NCBI GenBank assembly: GCA_016793925.1
Contig: JAEULH010000068.1
Coordinates: forward strand, 40,483-104,482
Length of the DNA: 64,000 nucleotides
Direction: 5' to 3'
Source of the DNA: Rhodospirillales bacterium
GTDB lineage: Bacteria > Pseudomonadota > Alphaproteobacteria > Rhodospirillales > Defluviicoccaceae
A model generated the notes under the pieces. That model had not been told where the DNA came from and made no database searches. It saw nothing but the letters and a program-made list of their open reading frames with translations. The translations under genes were made by a program, and so were the position numbers. Each line of letters opens with the position of its first letter. Position 1 is the stretch's first letter. This document shows, piece by piece, positions 2,706 to 41,002 of the stretch.

Positions 2706-3026
2706 CTACCGGCCGACCGCGCCCCGGTAAAGCATTCCGAGCTCCCGATAGGCGCCGAGACTGCGAGACAACGCCGCCAGCGTCGGGTCGCCCGTCGGGT
2801 CGCAGTTCTGCAAGGCGGCAAGACGCGTGCGGCGCGCGGCGATCGATCCGACCAGCTCGCGTGCGGCACGATTGATCTCTCGGCCGAATGCACGCCGCCG
2901 CCATGCACCGGCATCGCCCCCGGCCACAACTTCATCCAGCGCATTGGCCGGAAGCGGCCCATCATGGCGCAGGAAGAGTGTCTCAACCGATTCGAGCAAC
3001 GACGGGTGACGCGAGGCGGTGCGCAT
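2706..3026 (-). CDS. hypothetical protein (106 aa), co-directional with and downstream of the repressor gene
   Basis: Track ORF with plausible helical composition and an ATG start 5 nt from an AT-rich island. No family recognised. Confidence 0.35.
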   Translation of the reverse strand: MRTASRHPSLLESVETLFLRHDGPLPANALDEVVAGGDAGAWRRRAFGREINRAARELVGSIAARRTRLAALQNCDPTGDPTLAALSRSLGAYRELGMLYRGAVGR

Positions 3027-3085
3027 CGCTTATAGGATTATATTCTTGTGTAAATGTCAAGCGTCGGTCGCCGCGGCCTGCCCGG

Positions 3086-3748
3086 CTATTGGCTGGCCCA
3101 GATTATCCGCGCAAGCCACTCGACGTTCTCGACGGCGATAACCCGATCTTCGTGCTCCGGATTGAGCGAATCCAACTCGATCCTGTGCGCCGTGCGACGT
3201 CGCAGAAGCTTGGCCATGACTTCGCCTTCGCGAGTCTTCAAGACAACCCGGTCGCCGCGACGGGTACTGGCCGTGGGAGAGACGATGATGACGTCGCCGT
3301 CCCGGTAGAGCGGCTCCATGCTGTCCCCACTGATTTCGAGAGCATAGGCATGGGGGTCGCTCGCGTCTGGAAACAGAATTTCATCCCAGCCTGATCCGAC
3401 CGGGTAGCCCGCGTCGTCGAAGTATCCTTCCGTACCGGCCTGCGCCAGTCCGATAAGGGGAACCTTCTGAAAGGTATTCGATCCAGCAGTACCATCCAGA
3501 AGAGCGACGAATTCACCGATATGGGCTCCGCTTGCCTGAAGAACCTTGGCTATGCTTTCTGTACTCGGCCACCGAAGCTTTCCATCCTTCGTCACGCGCT
3601 TGCTTTTATTGAACGTCGTCGGGTCGAGACCGGCTCTTTTGGCCAGGCCCGAGGGCGACATGCCGCGCTGGTTCGCGAGAAGGTCGATAGCCCGCCAGAT
3701 TTCGGAATGCTCGAGCATGGGAACATTGTCATACGAGCTGTAGCGCAA
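3086..3748 (-). CDS. CI/LexA-like repressor: N-terminal HTH plus C-terminal S24 autopeptidase
   Basis: HTH region MSPSGLAKRAGLDPTTFNKSK. Candidate Ala-Gly cleavage site in PLIGLAQAGTEG. Catalytic-type Ser in ISGDSMEPLYRDGD and Lys in GEVMAKLL. Confidence 0.85.
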   Translation of the reverse strand: MRYSSYDNVPMLEHSEIWRAIDLLANQRGMSPSGLAKRAGLDPTTFNKSKRVTKDGKLRWPSTESIAKVLQASGAHIGEFVALLDGTAGSNTFQKVPLIGLAQAGTEGYFDDAGYPVGSGWDEILFPDASDPHAYALEISGDSMEPLYRDGDVIIVSPTASTRRGDRVVLKTREGEVMAKLLRRRTAHRIELDSLNPEHEDRVIAVENVEWLARIIWASQ

Positions 3749-3777
3749 CGCACTAGGAATATATTGCCTACTTACCC

Positions 3778-3805
3778 TTGACGATGGCGTGTAGTCCTAT
3801 ATGAT
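3778..3805 (+). promoter_or_regulatory. putative sigma70-type promoter TTGACG-N16-TATGAT reading rightward into the phage genes
   Basis: TTGACG at 3778-3783 and TATGAT at 3800-3805 with a 16-nt spacer, in the divergent region between the repressor gene and ORF 3847. Confidence 0.4.
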
Positions 3806-3812
3806 GATGCAT

Positions 3813-3827
3813 GTTCGCTTAACGTTC
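3813..3827 (+). promoter_or_regulatory. candidate alphaproteobacterial LexA (SOS) box GTTCGCTTAACGTTC
   Basis: Exact GTTC-N7-GTTC direct repeat. It starts about 8 nt after the putative -10 and ends 20 nt before the ATG at 3847. Confidence 0.5.
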
Positions 3828-3846
3828 TGGGGGGAACGTATCGAAG

Positions 3847-4212
3847 ATGCGTCGTCATCCGTACTGTCCGAAGTCCTATCCCGAATACCCGGCAACCGCG
3901 TTCGAAAACGCCGAAGAGGCGTGGTTCTGGTTCATCCGCTGCCAACAGATGCGTCGCGATGGCGCCAAACTCGACGGCGATCTGGACACGACGGCCCGAC
4001 CCTGCGATCCGGACGATGTCTATCGCGCCGCCGACAGGCTGGTACGCAATGGCACGATCCGCTCGGCACACATCAAGGTTCTGGTTCACTATGGTCACCT
4101 TCAGCGCACGCCGGATCCGCGCTGTGCCGAACAGGTCAAGGCGACGCAGTTTTGGTCCGAGGCGATTGACCGTCTTTCGAGCCCTTTGCGGGCGAAAGGG
4201 ATCATTCGGTGA
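3847..4212 (+). CDS. hypothetical phage protein (121 aa), first gene of the rightward operon
   Basis: Track ORF. Its stop overlaps the next start (GTGA at 4209-4212), suggesting translational coupling. No family recognised. Confidence 0.55.
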   Translation: MRRHPYCPKSYPEYPATAFENAEEAWFWFIRCQQMRRDGAKLDGDLDTTARPCDPDDVYRAADRLVRNGTIRSAHIKVLVHYGHLQRTPDPRCAEQVKATQFWSEAIDRLSSPLRAKGIIR

Positions 4213-4622
4213 CCGCAGGAACCGGCTCCGCAATTCCGGCCGTAGTCGTCTTCGCAGGCGGCACGACCTTGCGTTGGCTCCGCGTTCTGCGGCCGGGCTT
4301 CCGCCATTGTTTCATTGCCGTCGCATCGGGCGGGGGCTGGGTTATCCTCGATCCTCTTTCCCACATGACCAGTATCGCGGTCGTCGAAGGCTACTCTGCC
4401 GATCAGCTTGCCGACTGGTATGAAAGCCATGGGCTGAAGACGGTCAAGACGACGCTCCGCGAGGCGCCCGCCAGAATGGCGCCCTTCGCGCCCGCCACCT
4501 GTGTCGAGGCGGTCAAGCGGGTGCTGGGGATCCACGCCTGGTCCGTCATGACGCCACGGCAGCTCTATGACTATCTTCTGAATAATAAGACAATAAGCAT
4601 TGACATAGGTATATGGACCTGA
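4209..4622 (+). CDS. hypothetical phage protein (137 aa); possible permuted NlpC/P60-LRAT-like hydrolase fold (speculative)
   Basis: GTG start coupled to the upstream gene. The residue order FRHCFIAV...GGGWVILD...ATCVEAV resembles the His / polar residue / C-terminal Cys layout of LRAT-like papain-fold enzymes (HWAIYVG..GYVIH...NCEHFV). This is pattern-level only. Confidence 0.5.
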   Translation: MTAGTGSAIPAVVVFAGGTTLRWLRVLRPGFRHCFIAVASGGGWVILDPLSHMTSIAVVEGYSADQLADWYESHGLKTVKTTLREAPARMAPFAPATCVEAVKRVLGIHAWSVMTPRQLYDYLLNNKTISIDIGIWT

Positions 4623-4628
4623 TAGGGT
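4600..4628 (+). promoter_or_regulatory. putative promoter TTGACA-N17-TAGGGT upstream of the portal gene
   Basis: TTGACA at 4600-4605 and TAGGGT at 4623-4628, in a short AT-rich island at the end of ORF 4209..4622. Confidence 0.3.
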
Positions 4629-4781
4629 ACGCCTGTCGCTCGGGACTGGTGTGTCCGAACTCGCCCTGACAGAAACTGCCACCCCGCGACGCAGATTTCC
4701 CGATATAGGCCGCTTGAAGGAGACCGCCGCGATGTTTGACGCGCCGAAGTCGGTCCTGTGCCTGACCGCTCAGGATAGGCG

Positions 4782-6323
4782 ATGACCTCATCCCGGCTCG
4801 ATCCGAGGGGCATCCTTGAGCGTTATGCGCGGGCACGCCAACGCCGCGCAACCTGGGAGGCGCACTGGCAGGAATGCTATGATTTTGCCCTTCCCCAGCG
4901 CGACAGCATCATCCGGAGAGGACGTCCGGGCGAGAAGAGAACCGAAAAGCTCTTCGATGCGACAGCGCCGGATGCGGTCGATCAGCTCGCAGCCAGCCTG
5001 ATGGCGCAGTTGACGCCGCCGTGGTCGACATGGTTCGGCTTCTGCGCGGGCCCGGATGCCGATCCGGCCCTGCGCAGGGTCTTGGCGCCGGACCTCGAGC
5101 GGATGAGCCGGATCGTCCAGGCTCACTTCGACCGCTCGAACTTCGTGGTCGAACTGCACCAGTGCTATCTCGACCTTGTCACCGCCGGCACTGCATGTCT
5201 GATGTTCGAGGAAGCGGGAACAGGCGAAGAGTCCGCTTTTCGCTTCACCGCCGTTCCCCTTTCCCAGGTCGTGCTGGAGGAGGGAGCGTCCGGTCGTCTC
5301 GACACGACCTTCCGCCGGAGCCAACTGAGCCCGGCGCATGTGCTTGCTCGGTTTCCAGACGCTCGCGACGCCGAGCATCTCGCGGACCTGGTGCGCGAGA
5401 AGTCCGACGCCAGCCTCAACGTCGTCGAGGCCGTCGTGCCGGACGGCCGAGGCTATGCGTATCTGGCGGTCGCGGAGAACGGGCAGGCGCCTGACGGCAA
5501 GGTGATGGTGCTGGGCGAAGGGCGCTTCTTGTCTTCGCCGTTTATCAGTTTTCGCTGGTCCAAGGCTCCCGGCGAGGCATACGGCCGGTCGCCGGTGATG
5601 AAGGCGCTGCCTGACATCAAGACCGCGAACAAGGTCGTCGAATTGGTTCTGAAGAATGCGTCGATCGCAGTCACGGGAATCTGGCAGGTCGACGACGACG
5701 GGGTGATAAACCCGGCGAATATCAAGCTCGTTCCCGGCGCCGTCATTCCAAAGGCCATTGGCTCGGCCGGCCTGACACCGCTCGAGGCGCCCGGCCGCTT
5801 TGACGTCTCCGAGCTTGTCCTCGATCAGGTCCATGCCCGCATCCGCAAGGCCATGCTGGTCGACCAGCTTGGACCGGTGAACGGTCCGCGCATGACGGCC
5901 ACCGAGGTGCTGGCGCGAGCGGCCGAAATGGCTCGGCTGCTCGGCGCCACCTACGGCCGCCTGCAGTCTGAACTGCTGGCGCCCCTCGTCGTCCGGGCGC
6001 GAATGATCCTGGCTCGGCGCGGCGAGATCCCCGATTTGCCGCTCGATCACCGAATGGTTGCACTTGAACATCGCTCACCGCAGGCGCGCCACCAGGCCCA
6101 GCAGAGCGTTCAGAACACAATGCTCTGGCTGGACACCGTCCGCGCGCTGGGCACGGAAGCCATGCTTGCCGTCGACCAGACGGCGGCCGCCCGCTGGCTT
6201 GCGCAGGCGCTGGGGGTCCCTGGCGAACTTGTGCGCGAGCCTGGCGAGGGACTTTCGTTGTCTGAGACCGCCATTTCGTCTCCTTCCGACGCGCATGTCG
6301 CGTCCGCAGGAGGGTGGAGATGA
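4782..6323 (+). CDS. phage portal (head-to-tail connector) protein, T7 gp8 family
   Basis: Several blocks align to my remembered T7 gp8 sequence: LERYARARQRRATWEAHWQECYDFALP ~ YERLKNDRAPYETRAQNCAQYTIP; VDQLAASLMAQL ~ LNNLASKLMLAL; GEAYGRSPVMKALPDIK ~ GESYGRSYIEEYLGDLR; RMTATEVLARAAEM...SELLAPLV ~ RVTAEEIRYVASEL...QELQLPLV. Confidence 0.9.
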   Translation: MTSSRLDPRGILERYARARQRRATWEAHWQECYDFALPQRDSIIRRGRPGEKRTEKLFDATAPDAVDQLAASLMAQLTPPWSTWFGFCAGPDADPALRRVLAPDLERMSRIVQAHFDRSNFVVELHQCYLDLVTAGTACLMFEEAGTGEESAFRFTAVPLSQVVLEEGASGRLDTTFRRSQLSPAHVLARFPDARDAEHLADLVREKSDASLNVVEAVVPDGRGYAYLAVAENGQAPDGKVMVLGEGRFLSSPFISFRWSKAPGEAYGRSPVMKALPDIKTANKVVELVLKNASIAVTGIWQVDDDGVINPANIKLVPGAVIPKAIGSAGLTPLEAPGRFDVSELVLDQVHARIRKAMLVDQLGPVNGPRMTATEVLARAAEMARLLGATYGRLQSELLAPLVVRARMILARRGEIPDLPLDHRMVALEHRSPQARHQAQQSVQNTMLWLDTVRALGTEAMLAVDQTAAARWLAQALGVPGELVREPGEGLSLSETAISSPSDAHVASAGGWR

Positions 6324-6631
6324 GCGAATTCGACTGGTCACCTGGCGCGGAGACGCAGCTTCCGCCTGCGAACGCGGATTGCGCTGCGCAAACCGATGGC
6401 GAGATGGCTGCAGCATATGCGCGCTGTTTCTCGACGCCGGACGGACAGCGTGTTCTTGCCCATTTGCGCCGCCGGACCTTCGCCCGCATCTGCGGCCCCG
6501 ATGCGCCTGAAGCGCTGCTGCGTCACGCAGAAGGCCAGAGACAACTCGTTGCCAGCATTGTCGCCCTCGCCAAGAGAGGCGGCTGGGCGACGCTCTCGAT
6601 TGAAGGCGAGCCTGGAGAGATCGAAGCATGA
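6320..6631 (+). CDS. small conserved phage protein between portal and scaffold (Bbp19-like position; name from memory, unverified)
   Basis: The ATG at 6320 overlaps the portal stop (ATGA) and follows AGGAGG at 6308-6313. The stop overlaps the next ATG (6628). Confidence 0.6.
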   Translation: MSEFDWSPGAETQLPPANADCAAQTDGEMAAAYARCFSTPDGQRVLAHLRRRTFARICGPDAPEALLRHAEGQRQLVASIVALAKRGGWATLSIEGEPGEIEA

Positions 6632-7368
6632 GCGAAAGCAACACCCGTCACGATGAGCAAGCGATTGATCCCGCATCGGTCTCTGCCACCGAGACGTTCG
6701 CGCCACAGGACACACAGCAGCCCGCGCCCGACCATGCGGTTCGGCGTTCTCTGCCGGATCGCTTTCTGGACGACATCACCGGCGACGTGCGAACGGAAGC
6801 GCTTGTTGATGCCTATCTCGACCTTCAGGCCCAACTCGCCGAACTGCCGCTTCGAGAGATACCGAAAAGCCCTGACGACTACGAAATCGAGGTTCGTACA
6901 GACCTGTTTGCGAGCGATGCCGAGGTAAACCGGAAGCTGCATGAGGCCGGTTTCGACCAGAACCAGGCTCAGCTCGTCTATGACCTCGCCGCTTCGCACC
7001 TGCTTCCTATGGTCGCCGAGGTCGCCTCGACATACGAGGCGGAGGGACAGATCGCGAAGCTCAAACAGGACTTCGGCGGCGACGAGCAGTGGCAGGAAGT
7101 TTCCAGGCAAATGCAGACCTGGGGGAAGCGCCATCTGCCCGCTGAAGCGTTCGGAATTCTGGCGACGACGCGTGAAGGCGTCCTGGCGATGCACAAGATG
7201 ATGGCAGGCGGGGAGCCGGCCTTGCTGGGCAACGCCGGCGAGGACAGGGCCGCGCCGACGGAAGCTGAGCTGAAGCAGATGATGCGCGATCCGCGATACT
7301 GGCGCGACCAGGATGCGGCCCTGGTGGAAAGGGTCCGCGAAGGGTTCCGGCAGATCTATGACAATTGA
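6628..7368 (+). CDS. putative capsid assembly/scaffolding protein
   Basis: Acidic, helical 246-aa protein located between the portal and major capsid genes, as T7 gp9 is. The call rests on position and composition. Confidence 0.6.
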   Translation: MSESNTRHDEQAIDPASVSATETFAPQDTQQPAPDHAVRRSLPDRFLDDITGDVRTEALVDAYLDLQAQLAELPLREIPKSPDDYEIEVRTDLFASDAEVNRKLHEAGFDQNQAQLVYDLAASHLLPMVAEVASTYEAEGQIAKLKQDFGGDEQWQEVSRQMQTWGKRHLPAEAFGILATTREGVLAMHKMMAGGEPALLGNAGEDRAAPTEAELKQMMRDPRYWRDQDAALVERVREGFRQIYDN

Positions 7369-7404
7369 GGGGTGAGCGCGTCTGGTCGCGCCGCTCCCCC
7401 CGGG

Positions 7405-7430
7405 GGCGTCGGCTGCCGGCAGCCGACGCC
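7405..7430 (+). terminator. 26-nt perfect palindrome GGCGTCGGCTGCCGGCAGCCGACGCC (attenuator or RNA-processing hairpin candidate)
   Basis: Perfect inverted repeat 37 nt after the scaffold stop, followed by CTGTCTTCC, which is only a weak U tract. Confidence 0.35.
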
Positions 7431-7568
7431 CTGTCTTCCACCGCAGGCGCGCAATCCATGCGACCTGTGAAGGCCAACGTCCGCAGCCGCTGGCCGCAGC
7501 CGTCCGTATAACCGACTCGGCTGTGCTAACGAATTTGACAAGAATCTACCGTTTCAGGAGATATCTAG

Positions 7569-8387
7569 TTGTCACTAAGCATAACTCAATCATTCATAAA
7601 AAATTTCGAAGCACTGGTCCACATCAACTATCAGCAGATGGGAGCGAAGCTGCGGCCAACTGTCCGCACGAAGGACAACGTGATCGGCGCGTCGACTACG
7701 TTCCAGAGAGTCGGCAAAGGCACGGCGAGCACGAAAGCCCGTCACGGCAAGGTTCCGGTCATGAACGTCGACCATGCCCCGGTCGAATGCGTCCTACAGG
7801 ACTTCTATGCCGGCGACTGGATTGATCGGCTCGACGAGTTGAAGACGAATATCAACGAACAACAGGTTGTCGCCAAGGCCGGCGCTTACGCACTGGGACG
7901 CAAGACCGACGAGCTCATCATCGCTCAGTTCGCCGGGGCTACGGCTTCGGTCGGCGTCGACACCGACGGCCTGACAAAGACAAAGGCGCTCGCCGCGTTC
8001 GAAACCTTGGGGGAGGTCGATGTCCCCGACGACGGCCAGCGTTTTGCAGTTGTCGGCTGGAAACAGTGGAGCGAGTTGCTCAACATTCCCGAGTTCGGCA
8101 ATGCCGACTATGTGGGCGACGACGAACTCCCGTGGAAGGGTTCGCAGGCCAAGCGCTGGCTCGGCACGCTCTGGATCCCGCATTCGGGGTTGCCGCTCGA
8201 GGCCGGCGTCCGCTCGTGCTTCTGGTACCACAAGACGGCAGTGGCACATGCGTGCGGTTCCGATGTGCAGACCGACATTTCCTGGCACGGCGACCGCGCC
8301 GCTCATTTCGTCAACAACATGATGAGCCAGGGCGCATGCCTTATCGACGCCGCCGGCGTCGTCAAGATGCCTTGTCGCGAAGCCTAG
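7569..8387 (+). CDS. phage major capsid protein
   Basis: TTG start 8 nt after AGGAG (7556-7560). The 272-aa ORF directly follows the scaffold gene. The N-terminus MSLSITQSFIKNFEALVHINYQQMGAKLR resembles capsid proteins of BPP-1/T7-order prophages as I remember them. Confidence 0.75.
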   Translation: MSLSITQSFIKNFEALVHINYQQMGAKLRPTVRTKDNVIGASTTFQRVGKGTASTKARHGKVPVMNVDHAPVECVLQDFYAGDWIDRLDELKTNINEQQVVAKAGAYALGRKTDELIIAQFAGATASVGVDTDGLTKTKALAAFETLGEVDVPDDGQRFAVVGWKQWSELLNIPEFGNADYVGDDELPWKGSQAKRWLGTLWIPHSGLPLEAGVRSCFWYHKTAVAHACGSDVQTDISWHGDRAAHFVNNMMSQGACLIDAAGVVKMPCREA

Positions 8388-8403
8388 ACTGCGGAGAGCG
8401 AAG

Positions 8404-8673
8404 ATGTCGTATAACGCAAATGATCTGAGCGTCCTGGCCTACGCCAACGGGTTTACGCTGTGGCACTACCGGACGACCGACGTCGCGAGTTCTGTGGATA
8501 ATCAAGGTTACTTCGACGAAGCGGGCGATGTGTTCCGGAGCGGCGATATGATCCTGGCCAACACCGGCACGGGCGGCACCTCCGCGGCCGGCCTGTTCCT
8601 GGTGAGCAGCGCCGCCGCCGGCATGGTCGATGTCGCCGACCTTCTCGCGGTCGGCACCACGAACACCGATTGA
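8404..8673 (+). CDS. small head-associated phage protein (89 aa; possible decoration/cement protein)
   Basis: Immediately follows the capsid gene. The motif NDLSVLAYANGFTLWHYRT recurs in similar prophage modules in my memory. Function is unverified. Confidence 0.55.
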   Translation: MSYNANDLSVLAYANGFTLWHYRTTDVASSVDNQGYFDEAGDVFRSGDMILANTGTGGTSAAGLFLVSSAAAGMVDVADLLAVGTTNTD

Positions 8674-8819
8674 CGCTTCAATCGCTTGGTCCCCGCAGGC
8701 GCTGTTGAAGCGAATACGCGAACGCGAAGAGCGCGTCTGTCCATTGGCGCCTTCCTGCCGAAGCTGACAAGAAGCCTTTCGCTTCCACCCCTCGCGATGT
8801 TTCGAGAGGATCGCCAGTC

Positions 8820-9388
8820 ATGGCTATGAGCCGGATCGATTTGTGCTCGCGCGCACTTCTCAAGATCGGGGCCAACGTTATCAGTTCGCTTGACGAAAGA
8901 ACTGCCGAAGCCGATGTCGCCAACAATCTTTACGACTATATTTGCGACGCCCTTCTGTCGGCACACCCTGGCACTTTTGTACCACGCAACGGAAACTTGC
9001 CGCACTCTCTGAGGAAGCCGTTGTTGATCACGAGAACATGTTCGCGCTCCCGGCCGATTGCCTCCGCGTGTTGTCGGCGGGTCCCAGCGGCAGCGGCGCC
9101 GGCCTCGTCTACCGGCTGTTCAACGGAAAGCTTCATGCGGATGCTGCGGAGGTCACGCTGACCTACATTTATCGCGCTTCAGAGACCGATTTCCCGCCCT
9201 TCTTCGACAAGGTTCTGATCGCGCACCTGGCCGCGGAATTTTGCATTCCGCTCACCGACAGCACGTCGCGTTGGGAAAGCCTCCGGAAGGCAGCGGAAGA
9301 CGAACTGAAACAGGCCAAACTGATCAACGCGCAGGAAGTGACACCGGCCTGCATCGACGATTTCGTGCTTGTGGAGACTCGCTACTGA
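8820..9388 (+). pseudogene. head-tail adaptor (T7 gp11-size) interrupted by a -1 frame change near 8966-8971
   Basis: The N-terminal 50 aa (MAMSRIDLCSRALLKIGANVISSLDERTAEADVANNLYDYICDALLSAHP) are in frame 0. The continuation WHFCTTQRKLAALSEEAVVDHENMFALPADCL... runs to 9388 in the frame of track ORF 8942. The join lies at a CCC run. Confidence 0.6.
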
Positions 9389-11286
9389 TGGCTCGGGTGA
9401 GAGTAGCCAGGACCAACTTTTCCGCCGGCGAAGTTTCCTCCCGTCTCCTCGGCCGCACCGACTTGCGGGCCTTCGAGAACGGCGCCGCCCTGTTGCGAAA
9501 CGTCATCATCCACCCGACGGGAGGCGTCAGCCGCCGTCCCGGTTTGCGCTTCATCGACGTCGCGAAAGGGCCGGGCCGTCTTGTTGCAGCCGAATTCAAG
9601 AGCGGCGAAGTCTACCTCCTTGTCTTCTCCCACTTCGCCGTCGACGTCTACCGCGACGACGTCAGGATAGCCGGAGCTGCCACCCCGTGGACGCTCGCTC
9701 AACTGGCTCAACTGAACTGGGTGCAGACCACGGATTCGCTCCTGGTCGTCCATCCCGATGTGCCGCCCCAGGAAATCACACGACGTGACGCAACCAACTG
9801 GATCATCGCGGAGTGGAGCTTTTCCGAGAAAGGCGGACGAAAGCTTATCCCGCACCGCAAGATCGCCCCGGAGCAGACGACGCTGAACCCAAGTGGCACA
9901 AGCGGGAACATCGCAATCCTCGCGTCGGACGAGGTCTTCGCGCCCGATCACGTGGGCATTCGGCTTCGCTTGAACAACCGCGAGGTCGCCGTTACCGAGG
10001 TCGTATCCGCAACCGAGATCCGCGCCGACGTAAAGCAATCGCTGACTTCCACGCAGCCAACCGAAGACTGGACCGAGGAAGCCTTTTCGGCGGTGCGCGG
10101 TTGGCCTGCAGCCGTTTGTTTCCATCAGGATCGCCTTGTTATCGGCGGCTCCAGGGATCTGCCCAATCGCCTGTGGTTGTCAAGAACGGCGCGTCTGTTC
10201 GACTTCGATATGGGCGACGGCCTCGACGACGAGGCCATGGAGTTTGCGATCCTCTCCGATCGCGTCAGCGCCATTCGGGCGGTGTTCTCCGGTCGACATC
10301 TTCAGGTTTTCACGTCCGGCGCCGAGTGGATGGTGAGCGGCGAGCCGCTGACCCCAAGCAACATTCAGCTTCATCGGCAGACACGTATTGGCTCCATTGC
10401 AGCGCGCACGGTGCCGCCGAAAGATGTCGACGGCGCGACGGTGTTTGTCGCGCGCTCCGGAAAGCAGATCCGCGAGTTTCTGTTCACCGATACCGAGCAG
10501 GCCTATCAGGCCAATGATCTGGCGTTGCTATCGGATCATCTGATCGAAGAACCGGTCGACATGGATCTTGATCAGGTCGAGCGGCTTCTGCACGTGGTCA
10601 TGGCCGACGGCACGATGGCGACGTTGACCGTTTACCGCAACGAGCAGGTCAGCGCCTGGACTTTGCAGGAAACCGCCGGTGCGTTCCGCTCGGTCGCCGC
10701 GGTCGGCAAGGAAACGTTCGTTCTCGTCGAACGGGTTGGCGGCATCTTCATTGAGGCCTTTGACAGTCGGCTCAGCGTCGATGCCGGTATCCTTGCTTCG
10801 GCATCCACCGCTCAGGCAACCTGGGGTGGCCTGAACCATCTCGACGGTCTCGAAGTAAAGATTGTCGCGGACGGCGCGGTGCACCCCGACGTCGTGGTTT
10901 CCCTGGGCAGCATTATGCTGTCCGCGGAGGCGTGCGAAATCTCCGCCGGCCTCGCGTTCACGCATGTCATCGAGCCGTTGCCGGCGGTGATGCCAGGCAC
11001 GGATGGCGGGGGACTGGGGCGCCGGGTCAGACCCGTTGCCCTTACATTTCGCTTCCTCGAAACGGCAGCTCTGTACATCGACACCGGCCGCGGCATCGTC
11101 GACCACCCTTTTCCTCGACGCGGCACAAGCCCGCTCGGTACCCAGGCTGCTTCGTTCACCGGCGATCAATGCCTGCGCGCCTACGGATGGCGTGGCGACC
11201 TGAGCAGAAGCGTTTGGCGGATTGCACAAAGTGAACCGCTTCCCTTCACGCTGCTGTCGGTCACGACAGAGATGAGCGCCAATTAA
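9388..11286 (+). CDS. tail tubular/nozzle protein (T7 gp12-like by size and position)
   Basis: The ATG at 9388 overlaps the upstream TGA. The 633-aa ORF begins MARVRVARTNFSAGEVSSRLLGRTDLRAFENGA and follows the adaptor gene as in T7. Confidence 0.65.
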   Translation: MARVRVARTNFSAGEVSSRLLGRTDLRAFENGAALLRNVIIHPTGGVSRRPGLRFIDVAKGPGRLVAAEFKSGEVYLLVFSHFAVDVYRDDVRIAGAATPWTLAQLAQLNWVQTTDSLLVVHPDVPPQEITRRDATNWIIAEWSFSEKGGRKLIPHRKIAPEQTTLNPSGTSGNIAILASDEVFAPDHVGIRLRLNNREVAVTEVVSATEIRADVKQSLTSTQPTEDWTEEAFSAVRGWPAAVCFHQDRLVIGGSRDLPNRLWLSRTARLFDFDMGDGLDDEAMEFAILSDRVSAIRAVFSGRHLQVFTSGAEWMVSGEPLTPSNIQLHRQTRIGSIAARTVPPKDVDGATVFVARSGKQIREFLFTDTEQAYQANDLALLSDHLIEEPVDMDLDQVERLLHVVMADGTMATLTVYRNEQVSAWTLQETAGAFRSVAAVGKETFVLVERVGGIFIEAFDSRLSVDAGILASASTAQATWGGLNHLDGLEVKIVADGAVHPDVVVSLGSIMLSAEACEISAGLAFTHVIEPLPAVMPGTDGGGLGRRVRPVALTFRFLETAALYIDTGRGIVDHPFPRRGTSPLGTQAASFTGDQCLRAYGWRGDLSRSVWRIAQSEPLPFTLLSVTTEMSAN

Positions 11287-11388
11287 GGTTGCGCCGCCCG
11301 GCGACCGCGCCGCGGACGCGTCATCAAGTTCCGCCGCACTCCGCCAGCCAGCGGTTACAGCATCCCGCCACACATAGGAGTTTGCAAG

Positions 11389-11838
11389 ATGGGGGGCTTC
11401 GTCCCAGCCGCAGCGCTGAGCGCCGTGCAGATGAGCATCAGCGCCGCGCAACAGGAACGTCAAGCGGATGCCGCACGGGGCGCCGCGAAAGCAGAAGCCA
11501 GGTCGAAAATTGCGCAGATCAATGCGGCGAAAGCCGCCGAGGATCGCTTGCGGAACGAACGGCTGCGGCGCGCCCAGGCGAGTCAACGGGCCCAGTTCGG
11601 CTCTGCGGGCATTGCTTCCGGAGGATCGGCGCAAGCCGTGCTCGCCGGGTTGTCCAAGGAAGCGGCGCTGACGGCGGCCGAGCAAAACCGCCTGAACGCG
11701 CTTCGCATCGGCCAGATCAACCAGCAGCTCGACTGGCAGCGTCGCAAGAACCTGCTCGAGCTTTCGAACTACAAGTCAACGGCGGCGTTTGACCTGATGA
11801 AGCAGTCAGCGAGCAACGCCAACCTGTTGTCAAATTGA
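11389..11838 (+). CDS. Ala/Gln/Arg-rich coiled-coil phage protein (T7 gp13-size internal/assembly protein candidate)
   Basis: 149-aa ORF preceded by TAGGAG. Called on position after the nozzle gene. Confidence 0.5.
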   Translation: MGGFVPAAALSAVQMSISAAQQERQADAARGAAKAEARSKIAQINAAKAAEDRLRNERLRRAQASQRAQFGSAGIASGGSAQAVLAGLSKEAALTAAEQNRLNALRIGQINQQLDWQRRKNLLELSNYKSTAAFDLMKQSASNANLLSN

Positions 11839-11871
11839 TCCCAATCATATTAGAGCAAAGAGAACTGAATC

Positions 11872-12078
11872 ATGACGGACACAAAGCCGTGGTTTTTGTC
11901 GAAGGGTTTTGTTGGACCTCTGATCGCTGTTGTTGCAATAGCGCTGGAAAACATGGATATCATCGCACTCGACTCTAACAGTGTATCAGACATCGTCTTT
12001 CAAATGATCGCTCTCGCCGGAGCCGCGTTTGGAATGATCGGTCGTGCAGTGGCTGACAAGCGCCTGACGAAGATGTAG
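11872..12078 (+). CDS. putative class II holin (68 aa, two predicted TM helices, basic C-terminus)
   Basis: Hydrophobic stretches GFVGPLIAVVAIAL and IVFQMIALAGAAFGMIG, with a tail RAVADKRLTKM. It occupies the T7 gp17.5 position. Local GC is low. Confidence 0.5.
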   Translation: MTDTKPWFLSKGFVGPLIAVVAIALENMDIIALDSNSVSDIVFQMIALAGAAFGMIGRAVADKRLTKM

Positions 12079-12106
12079 CGGCGGCGCCATTCGAAAGCAC
12101 GATCTC

Positions 12107-12637
12107 ATGTCCATTGACCTTGAAAAGCGAATCGATCGCCTGGAGGCCGTTCAGGACCGCGTCTTCGGCAAACTGGATGAACTGCACGTCGAGTTTGTCA
12201 CGCTCTCGTCCAAAGTGGGCAACGGACTGGTGATGTCGTCCCAGGCCCATGGCTGCGAAATAGAGCAACTCAAAGCGGCGCACAAAATCCTTTCGGACGA
12301 AGTAGTACTTCGGTCGAAGGAGTTTGAGGTCAGGCATGTTCGCTTGGCTGCAGATCTCAAGCTGCTTGAAAGCAACATCATGAAGGACTTTGAGCAGCTC
12401 AAGCTTGCAATTCCCCAGGAGATACGGGCAGAAGGCACCGCGTTCATCGAAAACCTGCGCAAGCATCGAGAAGAAGAACGTCTGGAGCGTCTCGCCATCG
12501 AAAGAGAACGACGGGCAGAAATTGCCAAGCTCGCTGTAGAGCGAAAGATTTATATCATTCTCGGCGCCATAGCTATAACTCTCGGTGCACCTCTGATTAT
12601 CCGTGCGATTGACAGCATTTTAAGCAAACTTTCGTAG
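12107..12637 (+). CDS. coiled-coil protein with a single C-terminal TM anchor (176 aa), function unknown
   Basis: Heptad-rich, charged N-terminal ~150 aa followed by IYIILGAIAITLGAPLIIRAI. GC is lower than in the flanks. Confidence 0.55.
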   Translation: MSIDLEKRIDRLEAVQDRVFGKLDELHVEFVTLSSKVGNGLVMSSQAHGCEIEQLKAAHKILSDEVVLRSKEFEVRHVRLAADLKLLESNIMKDFEQLKLAIPQEIRAEGTAFIENLRKHREEERLERLAIERERRAEIAKLAVERKIYIILGAIAITLGAPLIIRAIDSILSKLS

Positions 12638-12641
12638 CACA

Positions 12642-12974
12642 ATGAAGGAGAATAGCTTCGCAAGACGCTCCGATGTTGTCTTGGTCGAAAAAGATGCACC
12701 CCGAAAGTCTTACACTGCCGACATCAGCGCTGATCTCCCCCTTCTGCTACATCATGCCTATCAGGCCTATCGCACCCGCGTTCTGGCGGGATTTCCCGCC
12801 GATGCAAAGGAATTCACCAGCGCGCAGGCGGCATGTCGAGCGGCGCTCGCTCACGTCATGCTGCTGCTGAGGCTCGAAGAGCGGGTTGCGAGGATCCAGT
12901 GCGGTCGCACCTTTGAAGAAGTCGACGGCCTGCAGGAATTGATTGCGCAGGCCCGCGTCGCTCTCGACCAATGA
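12642..12974 (+). CDS. hypothetical soluble helical protein (110 aa); small-terminase position in the T7 order
   Basis: Track ORF. Position-only inference. Confidence 0.4.
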   Translation: MKENSFARRSDVVLVEKDAPRKSYTADISADLPLLLHHAYQAYRTRVLAGFPADAKEFTSAQAACRAALAHVMLLLRLEERVARIQCGRTFEEVDGLQELIAQARVALDQ

Positions 12975-13010
12975 AGTTCCGAATGTTTTTTAATAAGATC
13001 GGTGTAAGAA

Positions 13011-13358
13011 ATGCCGCGCTATTTGTTTTTATGTGTCGGTTTATTCCTTCCGGCAATTTTCGTTGCCGGGTGTTCGACCGCTGAAAAGGCTCGCAGCTTC
13101 GCCGACGCAGCGGTGGCGGTGCAGCAAGAGCTCGGCCTGGAGGCGCTACGTCAAGCTGAGATCGAGCGACAGAGGCTGCGCAGTGCGCGCTGCTATAGCC
13201 CGGCGCTAACGCCGGCGGCTGTAAGCGCCGCTGCGGAGGACGCTGAGCTTGGTCAGGACTGGGTCGAGGAACTGCTGCGCGACTGCCCGCAGTTCTCGAC
13301 ATTTGTGTCAAACCTCGTCGTCAGCAGGGCCGCCAGCGTCGGCATGACGCTTCCGTAG
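13011..13358 (+). CDS. putative lipoprotein (115 aa); o-spanin position in the T7 order
   Basis: Signal peptide plus lipobox: MPRYLFLCVGLFLPAIFVAGC. Confidence 0.6.
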   Translation: MPRYLFLCVGLFLPAIFVAGCSTAEKARSFADAAVAVQQELGLEALRQAEIERQRLRSARCYSPALTPAAVSAAAEDAELGQDWVEELLRDCPQFSTFVSNLVVSRAASVGMTLP

Positions 13359-13366
13359 GCGCGTCC

Positions 13367-14902
13367 ATGCCAGAGGACCTCGTTCACCCGGCACGCGCTT
13401 CGAGCGCGTGCCGAGCGACGTTTTCCGAATTCATATGGATCTGGAACCACTCGCAGGACATGCCGACGCCAGATGTGCATCTACGAATGGCGCGGTGGCT
13501 GTTCGAGCGTTGGTCAAGCGGCGACCGCGAACTGCTGCTCTTGGCCTTTCGCAGCTCCGGCAAGTCAACGCTGGTCGGTTTGTTCTGCGCCTGGCTGCTG
13601 CTTCAGGACGCAAACCTTCGGATCCTGGTTCTTGCCGGCGACCTTCCCCTGGCGAAGAAGATGGTGAGGAACGTCCGGCGGTTGATCGAAAGCCATCCGC
13701 TAACCGGCGGGCTGCGAGCGCGTCGCTCCGATCAGTGGGCGGGGGACCAGTTTACGGTCGTTCGTCGTTTGGAACTGCGCGATCCGTCCATGCTCGCCAA
13801 GGGCATTTCTGCCAACATTACCGGCCTGCGGGCCGATGCCATCGTCTACGACGACGTGGAGGTGCCAAAAACATCGGATACGCCTGATAAAAGGGAGGCT
13901 CTGCGCGAACGCCTACGTGAAGCGGAATTTGTTCTTACGCCGGGAGGCCTGAGGCTATACATTGGCACGCCCCACACATATTATAGTATCTATAACATAG
14001 AATTGAACGGAGAACTGGGCGAAAGCGAAGCATTTCTTTCCGGCTACAAGCGTCTTGAAATCCCGATTCTGGACCATCGCCAGCAGAGCGCTTGGCCCGA
14101 GCGGTTCTCGCTCGATCGCATCGGCGACATGCTGTCAAAGGCGGGTCCGGCGAAATTCGAAAGCCAAATGCTGCTCAAGGCACGCCCGCCTTCCGATTTG
14201 CGGCTCGATCCGGAGCGGCTGCGCGTCTACCACGACGACCTGATCTACAGCGAGAGCAACAGGACGGCGAGCCTCACGCTCGGCGGCCGACGCCTTGTTT
14301 CGGCCTCGTGCTGGTGGGATCCGGCCTACGGCGCGCCGGAAAAAGGCGATGCCAATGCCGTTGCGGCGGTCTTTACCGATGAAACCGGGGGCTACTGGCT
14401 GCACAGGGTCCAGTATCTGACCCACGACGTCCGATTGCTCGACAACGTCGACGAAGCGACGCAGTTGTGCCGTCAGGTGGCGTCGCTCCTTCGTGATTTG
14501 CATCTGCCGGCTATCGTCGTGGAGACCAACGGCATCGGCCGCTTTCTTGCCGGGTTGTTACGACAGCAAATCGGATGGGCCGGCCTGCGCTGTTCGGTTC
14601 TGGAGCAAGTCTCTCGGACGAACAAAGACCTGCGCATCCTGGAGGCGTTCGATGCTGTTCTCGCAGCCCGGCGCCTCTCCGTTCATGACAGCGTCTTGCG
14701 TTCGCCCTTCATTCAGGAAATGCGCGAGTGGCGGCCTGGCGCGCGACGCTGCCGTGACGACGGACTCGATGCGGTTGCCGGGTGCTTGCTGAGTGAACCG
14801 GTTCGTCTGCCGCGCTTGGCGGCGGCGCCGCCGCGCGAAGTGAGCCGGGGCGCTTGGCGCGGCTTCGGACCCTTTCGGGCTGAAGGCGATTTTTCGCCGT
14901 AG
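13367..14902 (+). CDS. terminase large subunit (T7 gp19-like)
   Basis: Walker A-like LAFRSSGKSTLV, Walker B-like ADAIVYDDVE, and a nuclease-type C-terminal half. It is the last gene of the module, as in T7. Confidence 0.85.
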   Translation: MPEDLVHPARASSACRATFSEFIWIWNHSQDMPTPDVHLRMARWLFERWSSGDRELLLLAFRSSGKSTLVGLFCAWLLLQDANLRILVLAGDLPLAKKMVRNVRRLIESHPLTGGLRARRSDQWAGDQFTVVRRLELRDPSMLAKGISANITGLRADAIVYDDVEVPKTSDTPDKREALRERLREAEFVLTPGGLRLYIGTPHTYYSIYNIELNGELGESEAFLSGYKRLEIPILDHRQQSAWPERFSLDRIGDMLSKAGPAKFESQMLLKARPPSDLRLDPERLRVYHDDLIYSESNRTASLTLGGRRLVSASCWWDPAYGAPEKGDANAVAAVFTDETGGYWLHRVQYLTHDVRLLDNVDEATQLCRQVASLLRDLHLPAIVVETNGIGRFLAGLLRQQIGWAGLRCSVLEQVSRTNKDLRILEAFDAVLAARRLSVHDSVLRSPFIQEMREWRPGARRCRDDGLDAVAGCLLSEPVRLPRLAAAPPREVSRGAWRGFGPFRAEGDFSP

Positions 14903-15134
14903 CGGCAGATGATTGCCCGATGCCGAGCAAAACTTGTGGTTCTTCTACTTTCGGTAGACGACTGCCTGGCAAAAACAGCAACATTTAGGAAACATACGAT
15001 ATATAGTGATACCGACGCTCATCGGGTGTATACATAGCGTTGAAGCGGCGGTGGCGGCTCAGGTGGCAGCCTCGAAAAGTGCCCAAGGCTGAGAATTGGC
15101 CACTGCTGCAATTCGGCAAACGCAGGACGCACCG

Positions 15135-15497
15135 ATGAGCAGCAGCGATTGGACACCTGAGCGTATAGCGGCGCTGATTGCCCTGTGGAACGAAGAGCTC
15201 CCCACCAGCGAGATTGGCCGGCGGCTGTGCATCACGAAGAATGCCGTCATCGGCAAGGTGCATCGGCTGGGGTTGCCCAAGCGACGATTGCCTCCGGAGA
15301 AGCCGGAAGCCGCTCAGGTCGTACGCCTTGGCGAGTTGCGCTCGGGGATGTGCAGTTGGCCGTTGGGCAACCCAGGGGACGACTCGTTCCACTTCTGTGG
15401 TGCCGAGACGATGACCGGAAAGCCTTACTGCAGCAGGCACTGCGACGTGGCCTATGTGAAAACCGCCAAGGATCGAGGCAAGACCACCGCCGCGTAG
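15135..15497 (+). CDS. short GcrA-family cell-cycle regulator homologue
   Basis: N-terminus WTPERIAALIALWNEELPTSEIGRRLCITKNAVIGKVHRLGLPKR and C-terminus CSWPLGNPGDDSFHFCGAETMTGKPYCSRH match GcrA family hallmarks. Alternative upstream start at 15096. Confidence 0.8.
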   Translation: MSSSDWTPERIAALIALWNEELPTSEIGRRLCITKNAVIGKVHRLGLPKRRLPPEKPEAAQVVRLGELRSGMCSWPLGNPGDDSFHFCGAETMTGKPYCSRHCDVAYVKTAKDRGKTTAA

Positions 15498-22823: not shown

Positions 22824-22838
22824 GTTCCAGATTTGTTC
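22824..22838 (-). promoter_or_regulatory. candidate alphaproteobacterial LexA (SOS) box (GTTCCAGATTTGTTC on the + strand)
   Basis: Exact GTTC-N7-GTTC, 32-46 nt upstream of the radical-SAM ATG. Confidence 0.55.
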
Positions 22839-40363: not shown

Positions 40364-41002
40364 TCAGTCCGCCACCGCGCCGCAGCGACGCAGGCAGGCG
40401 AGCAGGGGCAGCAACGGCAGACCGAGGATCGTGAACATGTCGCCCTCGACCGCGTCGAAGAGCTGAATGCCCGGTCCCTCGAACCGATAACCGGCAACCG
40501 TATCCAGCGCCGCCGCGCCGGCGCGATCGAGGTAGTCGGCCAGGACGTCGTCGGAAAATGCGCGCATGCTCATGACCGCAACGTCGACATGGGTCCACGC
40601 GCAGCGGCCTTCTAGCGCCACCGCCACCGCCGAGACCAGACGGTGGCGACGCCCGCGCAGGATCCTCAGGTTGCGCTCGGCCTCGGCCAGATCGGCCGGC
40701 TTTTCGAACCACTGGCCATCGCATTCGAGCATCTGGTCGGCGCCGACAACCAGCGCGTCCGGATGGACCCCGGCCACCGCCGCCGCCTTGGCTTCGGCCA
40801 ACGCCGTCGCCACCTCCTCGGCGCTTCGGCTCGCCGCGCGCATGGCGATGCGCACCGCCGCCTCATCGACGTCCGCGGGCGCGGCATCATAGGCCAGACC
40901 CGCGTCGCTCAGCAGCCGCTGGCGGGTCCGGCTCGCCGATGCCAGCACCAGCCGCGGCGATGCGGACCGCGGGCCGCACGCGGATGACGGACCGGCCGTC
41001 AT
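40364..41002 (-). CDS. maf: Maf-family nucleoside triphosphate pyrophosphatase
   Basis: LVLASASRTRQRLL...VVGADQ...AGGYRFEG-type block (VAGYRFEGPGIQL). Confidence 0.85.
   Translation of the reverse strand: MTAGPSSACGPRSASPRLVLASASRTRQRLLSDAGLAYDAAPADVDEAAVRIAMRAASRSAEEVATALAEAKAAAVAGVHPDALVVGADQMLECDGQWFEKPADLAEAERNLRILRGRRHRLVSAVAVALEGRCAWTHVDVAVMSMRAFSDDVLADYLDRAGAAALDTVAGYRFEGPGIQLFDAVEGDMFTILGLPLLPLLACLRRCGAVAD

Follow-up and report, generated by a model that had tools for sequence, protein, structure and literature searches.

Is the early operon of a phage-derived gene cluster in an alphaproteobacterium controlled by the host SOS repressor LexA, and does a repressor encoded beside that operon share the control? 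The question is raised by a stretch of 64,000 nt, hereafter the window, from the draft genome of a Rhodospirillales bacterium of the Defluviicoccaceae (assembly GCA_016793925.1; 3.31 Mb, 66.8% GC). The window corresponds to positions 40,483 to 104,482 of contig JAEULH010000068.1 (C18:40483-104482), and positions given below without a contig are those of the window. In the spacer between a leftward gene for a peptidase-S24 regulator and the first rightward gene of the cluster, a preliminary description made from the sequence had noticed a LexA-type direct repeat beside a promoter, and had proposed that a phage island is wired to the SOS response twice, through host LexA and through its own autocleavable repressor. 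Our comparative analysis indicates that the repeat is very probably a real LexA binding site, and points to joint repression of the rightward promoter by LexA and the S24 regulator.

Results

A LexA-type box overlaps the rightward promoter

The repeat, GTTCGCTTAACGTTC, is read at 3813-3827 on the forward strand and, as previously noted, is an exact GTTC-N7-GTTC. It lies just downstream of the rightward promoter P1 (3778-3805, forward strand), which consists of a -35 element TTGACG (3778-3783), 16 nt and a -10 element TATGAT (3800-3805). In a consensus promoter scan P1 was the sole sigma-70-like match in 3000-5000, with 10 of 12 positions, in agreement with its earlier rating as a good promoter. 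Seven nucleotides separate the -10 element from the box and 19 nt separate the end of the box from the ATG at 3847. Since the box begins only 7 nt past the -10 element, it covers the predicted transcription start, from about +1 to +15, and thus overlaps the core promoter and the start of P1 as predicted from sequence.

Two other elements of this region were considered and rejected. An mRNA hairpin, ACGTTC-N6-GAACGT (3822-3839), masking the ribosome-binding site was not significant (z = -1.1) and was found in close relatives only. An element common to the recA upstream region and to 3723-3740, CATTGTCA...TACGAGCTGT, was dropped because TACGAGCTGT has ten copies in the genome, most of which are Tyr-Glu-Leu codons, and related loci do not conserve it here.

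The box has the form of the LexA operator of the lineage

GTTC-N7-GTTC is the Caulobacter LexA motif obtained by chromatin immunoprecipitation sequencing and MEME, and is an established alphaproteobacterial LexA site (PMC12700426). The window's host follows the same rule, as GTTCTATTTTAGTTC precedes its lexA gene. The 29 lexA loci that we examined, one from this genome and the others from 28 of 30 sampled relatives, span most of the 13 sampled families of the order, and every one of them has an exact box upstream, mostly GTTCTAGTTTGGTTC. A second promoter-proximal LexA-type box of the window, GTTCCAGATTTGTTC (22824-22838, forward strand), stands upstream of a radical-SAM/UdgX operon (TIGR03916, 2.2e-165; a UdgX/TIGR03915 fusion gene, TIGR03914/03915). 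In all six genomes having this operon, an exact box occupies the corresponding position, its spacer taking four different forms, and we regard the 22824 box as an internal positive control for the one at 3813. Furthermore, GTTCTTGTTATGTTC lies directly upstream of imuA-imuB in the same genome. The occurrence of the motif at the lexA, radical-SAM/UdgX and imuAB promoters corroborates the view that it is the operator form of host LexA.

Frequency of the motif in the window and in the genome

The window contains four exact GTTC-N7-GTTC sites on both strands, against 2.0 +/- 1.4 in shuffled sequences, so that the initial estimate of about one chance occurrence per 64 kb was too low. The accompanying remark that both occurrences are promoter-proximal applies to the two forward-strand sites (3813 and 22824) and not to the count, as there are also two reverse-strand sites, 49537 and 59938, within coding sequence, one in a 147-aa open reading frame (ORF) and one in leuS.

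The genome-wide background scan proposed in the preliminary description was run as exact-core counts with Markov-1 and Markov-3 controls. Exact cores were preferred to a LexA weight matrix because the lexA-promoter sites are orthologous and nearly identical. Gene calls were crude and covered 85% of the genome, and non-coding DNA was taken to include the first 60 nt of genes. The 3.31 Mb hold 97 exact sites: 37 in non-coding DNA, where 22-25 are expected (Markov-1, Markov-3), and 60 in coding DNA, where about 109 are expected (Markov-3). The non-coding excess and the coding deficit together indicate that the motif is over-represented at likely operator positions and disfavoured within genes. 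The strong depletion in coding DNA may mean that stray LexA sites are selected against, or may stem from codon structure that the model does not capture.

The chance of an exact site in a 128-nt spacer is about 0.5%, and far lower for a fixed position. A single site is therefore unlikely by chance yet not decisive, and the decision falls to conservation.

The box is conserved in about half of the loci with the rightward operon

Loci related to the one in the window were of two kinds. In context A, an orf121-orf137 pair is transcribed away from the S24 gene, and genes for a T7-type portal, a Bbp19-like protein, a scaffold and a capsid come next in most cases; in context B, the S24 gene stands alone among ordinary genes (Rhodoplanes, Xanthobacter, Devosia, Rhizobium, Ensifer, Oceanicaulis). 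An exact GTTC-N7-GTTC was found in 16-17 of 34 distinct context-A control regions, with 15 different spacers, 86-106 nt from the S24 start codon and always on the strand of orf121; a further four context-A regions have a one-mismatch box at the same place. The carriers include members of the window's own family, Rhodospirillales metagenome-assembled genomes (MAGs), the cultured Ferruginivarius sediminum WD2A32 (locus L022, with an exact box), a Thalassospiraceae MAG and a Methylocystaceae MAG. When box-carrying loci are compared in pairs, their spacers agree at about 37% of positions and the adjacent 10 nt at 36-38%, values which imply that the region is mutationally saturated save for the two tetramers, the -35 and the -10 elements. 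The TTGAC and cc.aTA promoter blocks are conserved across the 34 aligned loci. None of the context-B loci examined has the box. Taken together, this is the pattern that would be expected of a selected operator belonging to the rightward promoter.

We also considered the box as the operator of the S24 regulator itself. This was rejected, as S24 genes without phage neighbours lack the box and carry an AGG-N8-CCT palindrome instead.

The divergent regulator is probably an intact member of the RogA family

The leftward gene (3086-3718, reverse strand) encodes a 210-aa protein with a helix-turn-helix (HTH) and a peptidase-S24 domain (Pfam Peptidase_S24, 2.4e-24), which matches a PHROG transcriptional repressor (2.6e-28) and, weakly, LexA (TIGR00498, 1.9e-08). 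The Ser of its GDSM motif and its Lys match the catalytic Ser-Lys dyad of LexA when the two proteins are aligned, and no variation is seen at A94-G95, S133 or K170 among 39 diverse members of the S24 family. The initial reading of this gene as a divergent CI/LexA-like S24 repressor with an Ala-Gly site and a Ser/Lys dyad is thus well founded.

The family is large (more than 8000 homologues of nearly constant length) and has matches in 356 species of the genome collection, in Rhodospirillales, Hyphomicrobiales and Caulobacterales, plus MAGs labelled Rhodobacterales. Of 121 Caulobacterales genomes, 75 have exactly one copy of it. Several Caulobacterales members (L172 and L174-L182; genomes G114, G104 and others) are without the catalytic Ser and Lys, and often without Ala-Gly; in L172, a 213-aa protein from a 4.1-Mb genome, Ser is replaced by Asp and Lys by Arg. 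RogA, the repressor of the gene transfer agent (GTA) activators GafYZ in Caulobacter, is a 213-aa HTH and S24-like protein that is widespread in Alphaproteobacteria, has no catalytic residues and binds inverted repeats GGAA-N4-TTCC (PMC9632790). The Caulobacterales homologues of our regulator fit this description in length and in their missing catalytic residues. The regulator of the window is therefore probably a catalytically intact RogA-family member and, to judge from the published description, a presumed homologue of RogA (CCNA_00080).

At 3719-3745 and in related loci, a conserved block CATGGGAACATTGTCTTA.A abuts the S24 start codon, and the S24 strand reads TATAAGACAATGTTCCCATG. This suggests a -10 element only about 13 nt before the ATG, hence a nearly leaderless repressor mRNA, as for lambda cI transcribed from PRM.

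A second palindrome marks the probable sites of the S24 regulator

The alignment of the 34 loci shows two further conserved blocks, gCAcTAGGAA.aTatt and TTGAc...gG......cc.aTA, both with an AGG-N8-CCT palindrome. Of 84 distinct S24 genes from both contexts, 46 have the palindrome in the 200 nt before the gene, versus 4.5 expected, and in context A it is placed exactly between the -35 and -10 elements of P1. Its geometry is that of the RogA site GGAA-N4-TTCC (PMC9632790), and it is probably the operator of the S24 regulator.

Three such sites can be assigned in the window. O1, TAGGAATATATTGCCTA (3754-3770), is a TAGG-N9-CCTA palindrome adjoining the regulator's own promoter, and by its position and similarity, the only grounds of its assignment, it is probably an autoregulatory operator. 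O2, TGGCGTGTAGTCCT (3785-3798), is an (A/T)GG-N8-CCT palindrome inside the P1 spacer and is the probable operator of the regulator on P1; in close relatives (loci L001, L007, L009 and L011) an exact AGG-N8-CCT stands at this position. The third site belongs to a second promoter, P2 (4600-4628, forward strand), which sits where orf137 ends, ahead of the portal gene. P2 consists of TTGACA, TAGG-N8-CCTG and ATAGGGT, an architecture like that of P1, with an exact AGG-N8-CCT at 4607-4620 and no LexA box. P2 is conserved in close relatives, a promoter of the form TTGACATAGG-N8-CCTAGTA standing at its place in L001, L007, L008, L009 and L010.

Three further loci of the genome with one or both types of site deserve mention. 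On contig C35 (32953-34771), AGGTAAAAATACCT precedes a stand-alone tail or tail-fibre-like gene (C35:33056-34771; 571 aa, phrog_1640, 1.4e-24) among ordinary genes, which appears to be an outlying part of the regulon, such as GTAs have. At C25:84156-84390, an unannotated 164-aa ORF is preceded by a GTTC-N7-GTTC with a GC-rich spacer and a AGGATAAAATTCCT palindrome, with 145 nt between them, and may be a further co-regulated locus. At C106:29370-31343, the start of a 655-aa ORF, judged by eye to be phage- or plasmid-primase-like, is overlapped by GTTCGCGTGATGTTC; the ORF is possibly part of another mobile element, which may be a second LexA-controlled one.

The rightward operon and the particle cluster

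P1 is followed by two small genes, orf121 (3847-4212, forward strand), which encodes a conserved four-helix protein, and orf137 (4209-4622, forward strand), which overlaps it by 4 nt. Neither has a Pfam, NCBIfam or PHROG match. Their AlphaFold2 models were confident (predicted local distance difference test scores of 84 for orf121 and 79 for orf137) but gave no significant fold match in PDB or BFVD; the best matches of orf137, at E of about 0.1, included papain-like cysteine proteases. His33-Cys34, Cys98 and Lys103 of orf137 are invariant in 18 homologues, and it may be a thiol enzyme. Among the 31 genomes searched (own and 30 relatives), orf121 is present as a single copy in 20, and its identity drops with kinship, from 63-83% within the genus to 43-55% within the family and 37-49% within the order.

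Downstream on the forward strand lie genes for a T7-type portal (4782-6323; Pfam Head-tail_con, 1.7e-135), a Bbp19-like protein (6314-6631; Bbp19, 1.8e-17), a scaffold (6628-7368; Phage_T7_Capsid, 6.7e-17), a capsid (7569-8387; Phage_capsid_2, 1.9e-79), a T7-type tail protein (9058-11286; phrog_376, 6.8e-140) and the large terminase (13367-14902; phrog_38, 7.9e-76). A short GcrA-family gene (15096-15497; Pfam GcrA, 3.1e-29) follows the terminase as the last of the cluster. From 3086 to 15497 only regulatory, structural and packaging genes were found, integrase and replication genes not having been searched exhaustively.

The window and locus L001 share an xseA-purD neighbourhood. In three genomes (L003 in G031, L012 in G032 and L016 in G034), the S24-orf121-orf137 trio is kept with no portal homologue anywhere in the genome, and L003 alone among them also keeps an exact LexA box. 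The trio thus outlives the structural genes, which makes it a separable regulatory module. The term phage island used previously is apt for the phage-derived genes but not in the sense of an ordinary prophage, given the single copy, the fall of identity with kinship and the neighbourhood shared with L001. The cluster is better described as single-copy, vertically inherited and domesticated, derived from a T7/BPP-1-type podovirus and GTA-like, rather than as a recently integrated prophage. Full-text searches of the literature brought up no account of a domesticated T7-type cluster under LexA or RogA-type control.

Discussion

Dual repression of P1 by LexA and by the RogA-type S24 regulator is the model best supported by our data, and we consider it likely to be correct. 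P1 would be the early promoter of a chromosomally fixed, podovirus-derived particle cluster, probably shut jointly by the two repressors. Host LexA would bind 3813-3827 over the predicted start and block initiation or promoter escape, and the S24 regulator would bind O2 between the -35 and -10 elements of P1, as well as O1 by its own promoter and P2. The latter promoter, which would drive the portal, capsid, tail and terminase genes, would depend on the S24 regulator alone. Upon DNA damage, RecA filaments would trigger the self-cleavage of LexA; the S24 regulator would probably be cleaved too, since its Ala-Gly, Ser and Lys are invariant. With both repressors gone, P1 would fire and orf121-orf137 would be expressed, and by the distribution of boxes these two would be the only cluster genes under direct LexA control, LexA gating P1 alone. 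The double SOS wiring originally proposed is thus supported, on sequence evidence only, by the conserved box and by the retention of Ala-Gly, Ser and Lys, with the refinement that LexA would act on P1 only.

Several observations weigh against this model. About half of the related loci (L005, L012, L015, L017-L020, L027 and L036 among them) have no box, although their genomes nonetheless have LexA with the same motif, which implies that LexA control is dispensable for the cluster. About two thirds of the exact non-coding sites of the genome (about 24 of 37) are expected by chance, so that the motif alone is no proof. Moreover, no GTTC-N7-GTTC, even with one mismatch, was found upstream of recA (C29:44480-44990), in the ssb-uvrA spacer (C94:6650-6960) or upstream of uvrB (C42:31600-32000). 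The LexA regulon of this host therefore seems atypical and reduced, leaving out recA, and the RecA-LexA circuit is an assumption of the model. The sites of the window also depart from their own consensus: the box has C before the second GTTC, where T is commoner, the spacing of O1 is N9 and not N8, and O2 has one mismatch, TGG for AGG.

Other explanations of the box have to be set beside dual repression. LexA could be the sole SOS sensor, with the S24 regulator poorly cleaved in vivo and the LexA-gated orf121 and/or orf137 inactivating it or activating P2, in the manner of Tum of coliphage 186, of the Gifsy antirepressors or of GafYZ downstream of RogA; we regard this as a possibility, though clearly a less probable one. 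It would account for the LexA box being on P1 only and for P2, before the structural genes, having an S24-type palindrome only. It also agrees with the persistence of the trio in portal-less genomes, the box being kept in one of three, which marks it as a regulatory module. LexA-controlled antirepressors are an established design (PMC3121763), RogA works through a two-gene activator operon (PMC9632790, PMC11150451), and the invariant His-Cys and Cys of orf137 can be counted on the same side. However, the invariance of Ala-Gly, Ser and Lys in the 39 S24 members argues that self-cleavage is used, the presence of an S24-type palindrome on P1 itself means that LexA cleavage alone should not open this promoter, and orf121 and orf137 are unlike any known antirepressor or activator. 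This explanation and dual repression are not mutually exclusive.

We find it improbable that GTTC-N7-GTTC is bound by a factor encoded in the cluster (the S24 regulator, orf121 or the GcrA-like protein), its likeness to an SOS box being coincidence or mimicry. The restriction of the box to loci where orf121 follows, and its absence before stand-alone S24 genes, would be in line with such a factor, as would the boxless half of the cluster loci in genomes that have LexA. Nevertheless, the core is the same as that of the lexA, radical-SAM/UdgX and imuAB promoters in the same genomes, so that LexA binding would be expected anyway. The S24 family has its own, different and strongly enriched palindrome, and a 7-nt-spaced direct repeat is what LexA of Alphaproteobacteria is known to recognise (PMC12700426). 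Least probable of all, to the point that we give it hardly any credence, is a chance occurrence without function. The roughly two exact sites per 64 kb in shuffled sequence and the share of non-coding genome sites attributable to chance speak for it, but they do not explain why 16-17 of 34 distinct loci, which show 15 different spacers and have flanks about 36% identical, carry the exact core at one offset and on one strand, when the probability per 128-nt spacer is about 0.5% and far less at a fixed position. Recent copying of the loci is excluded by their protein identities of 57-91%.

The arrangement predicted by the dual-repression model shares features with several known systems. As in the SOS regulons of Caulobacter, Rhodobacter and Rhizobium (PMC12700426), the operator is an exact 7-nt-spaced direct repeat overlapping a promoter; unlike in those regulons, it stands before the early operon of phage-derived particle genes and not before a repair gene, and no box was found at recA, uvrA, ssb or uvrB of this genome. 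The closest parallel to the S24 regulator is the RogA-GafYZ system of the Caulobacter crescentus GTA (PMC9632790, PMC11150451). Both have a regulator of about 210 aa with an HTH and an S24 fold, widespread in Alphaproteobacteria, and a small two-gene operon upstream of phage-like structural genes that is repressed there and predicted to be so here. The operator geometry, GG(AA)-N4-(TT)CC in RogA and AGG-N8-CCT in the window, is the same as judged from sequence alone, and several Caulobacterales members of the window regulator's family are without the catalytic Ser and Lys, as reported for RogA. In contrast, the regulator of the window keeps Ala-Gly, Ser and Lys and directly adjoins its target, the structural genes are of the T7/BPP-1 podovirus type rather than of the HK97 type of RcGTA, the early promoter has a LexA box in addition, and orf121 and orf137 have no detectable similarity to known families.

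At PrstA of the phage CTXphi, dual repression is exerted by LexA and the phage repressor RstR. LexA acts at the CTXphi rstR promoter (PMC3121763). There, as predicted here, host LexA and a repressor of the element occupy one divergent control region, so that induction needs LexA cleavage; CTXphi differs in being a filamentous phage of a gammaproteobacterium with a CTGT-N8-ACAG box, in that RstR is not an S24 self-cleaving protein, and in that LexA also activates rstR. LexA-repressed antirepressors, namely Tum of coliphage 186, AntC of N15 and GfoA/GftA of the Gifsy prophages (PMC3121763), and the phage GIL01, where LexA acts with gp7 (PMC4551915), likewise exemplify temperate elements in which a small early gene or operon, with a host LexA box before it, relays the SOS signal to lytic genes. 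In those elements the own repressor is non-cleavable or absent, whereas here the cleavage residues are kept and the probable S24 operator shares the LexA-boxed promoter. The regulator of the window finally resembles the lambda CI/LexA class (MEROPS S24) in its N-terminal HTH, Ala-Gly site, Ser-Lys dyad, divergent promoters and probably very short repressor leader. Unlike in that class, its gene belongs to a single-copy, host-wide family with 57-96% identity that is also found with no phage genes nearby.

A bolder proposal, which we put forward tentatively and hold to be rather doubtful, is that the cluster is a second, independently domesticated alphaproteobacterial GTA, of the podovirus (T7/BPP-1) type. 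It would be controlled by an AND gate of LexA and an intact, RecA-sensitive RogA of the ancestral type, with orf121-orf137 as LexA-gated switch proteins analogous to GafYZ or to an antirepressor, and the Caulobacter RogA would be a degenerate descendant.

Should LexA bind the box, a widespread, chromosomally fixed, phage-derived particle system of Alphaproteobacteria would be tied to the DNA-damage response by two repressors on one promoter, and a direct, sequence-defined SOS link to a GTA-like element would be at hand. The effect of LexA on RcGTA is reportedly indirect. Two studies of RogA name no signal that relieves its repression (PMC9632790, PMC11150451), and LexA binding at P1 would offer a testable answer to how RogA-type repression is relieved. 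As most members of the S24 family keep the self-cleavage residues, RecA-triggered cleavage may be the ancestral signal for the RogA-type family. Moreover, LexA binding would place a conserved target outside DNA repair in the LexA regulon, from which recA, uvrA and ssb are apparently missing in this lineage.

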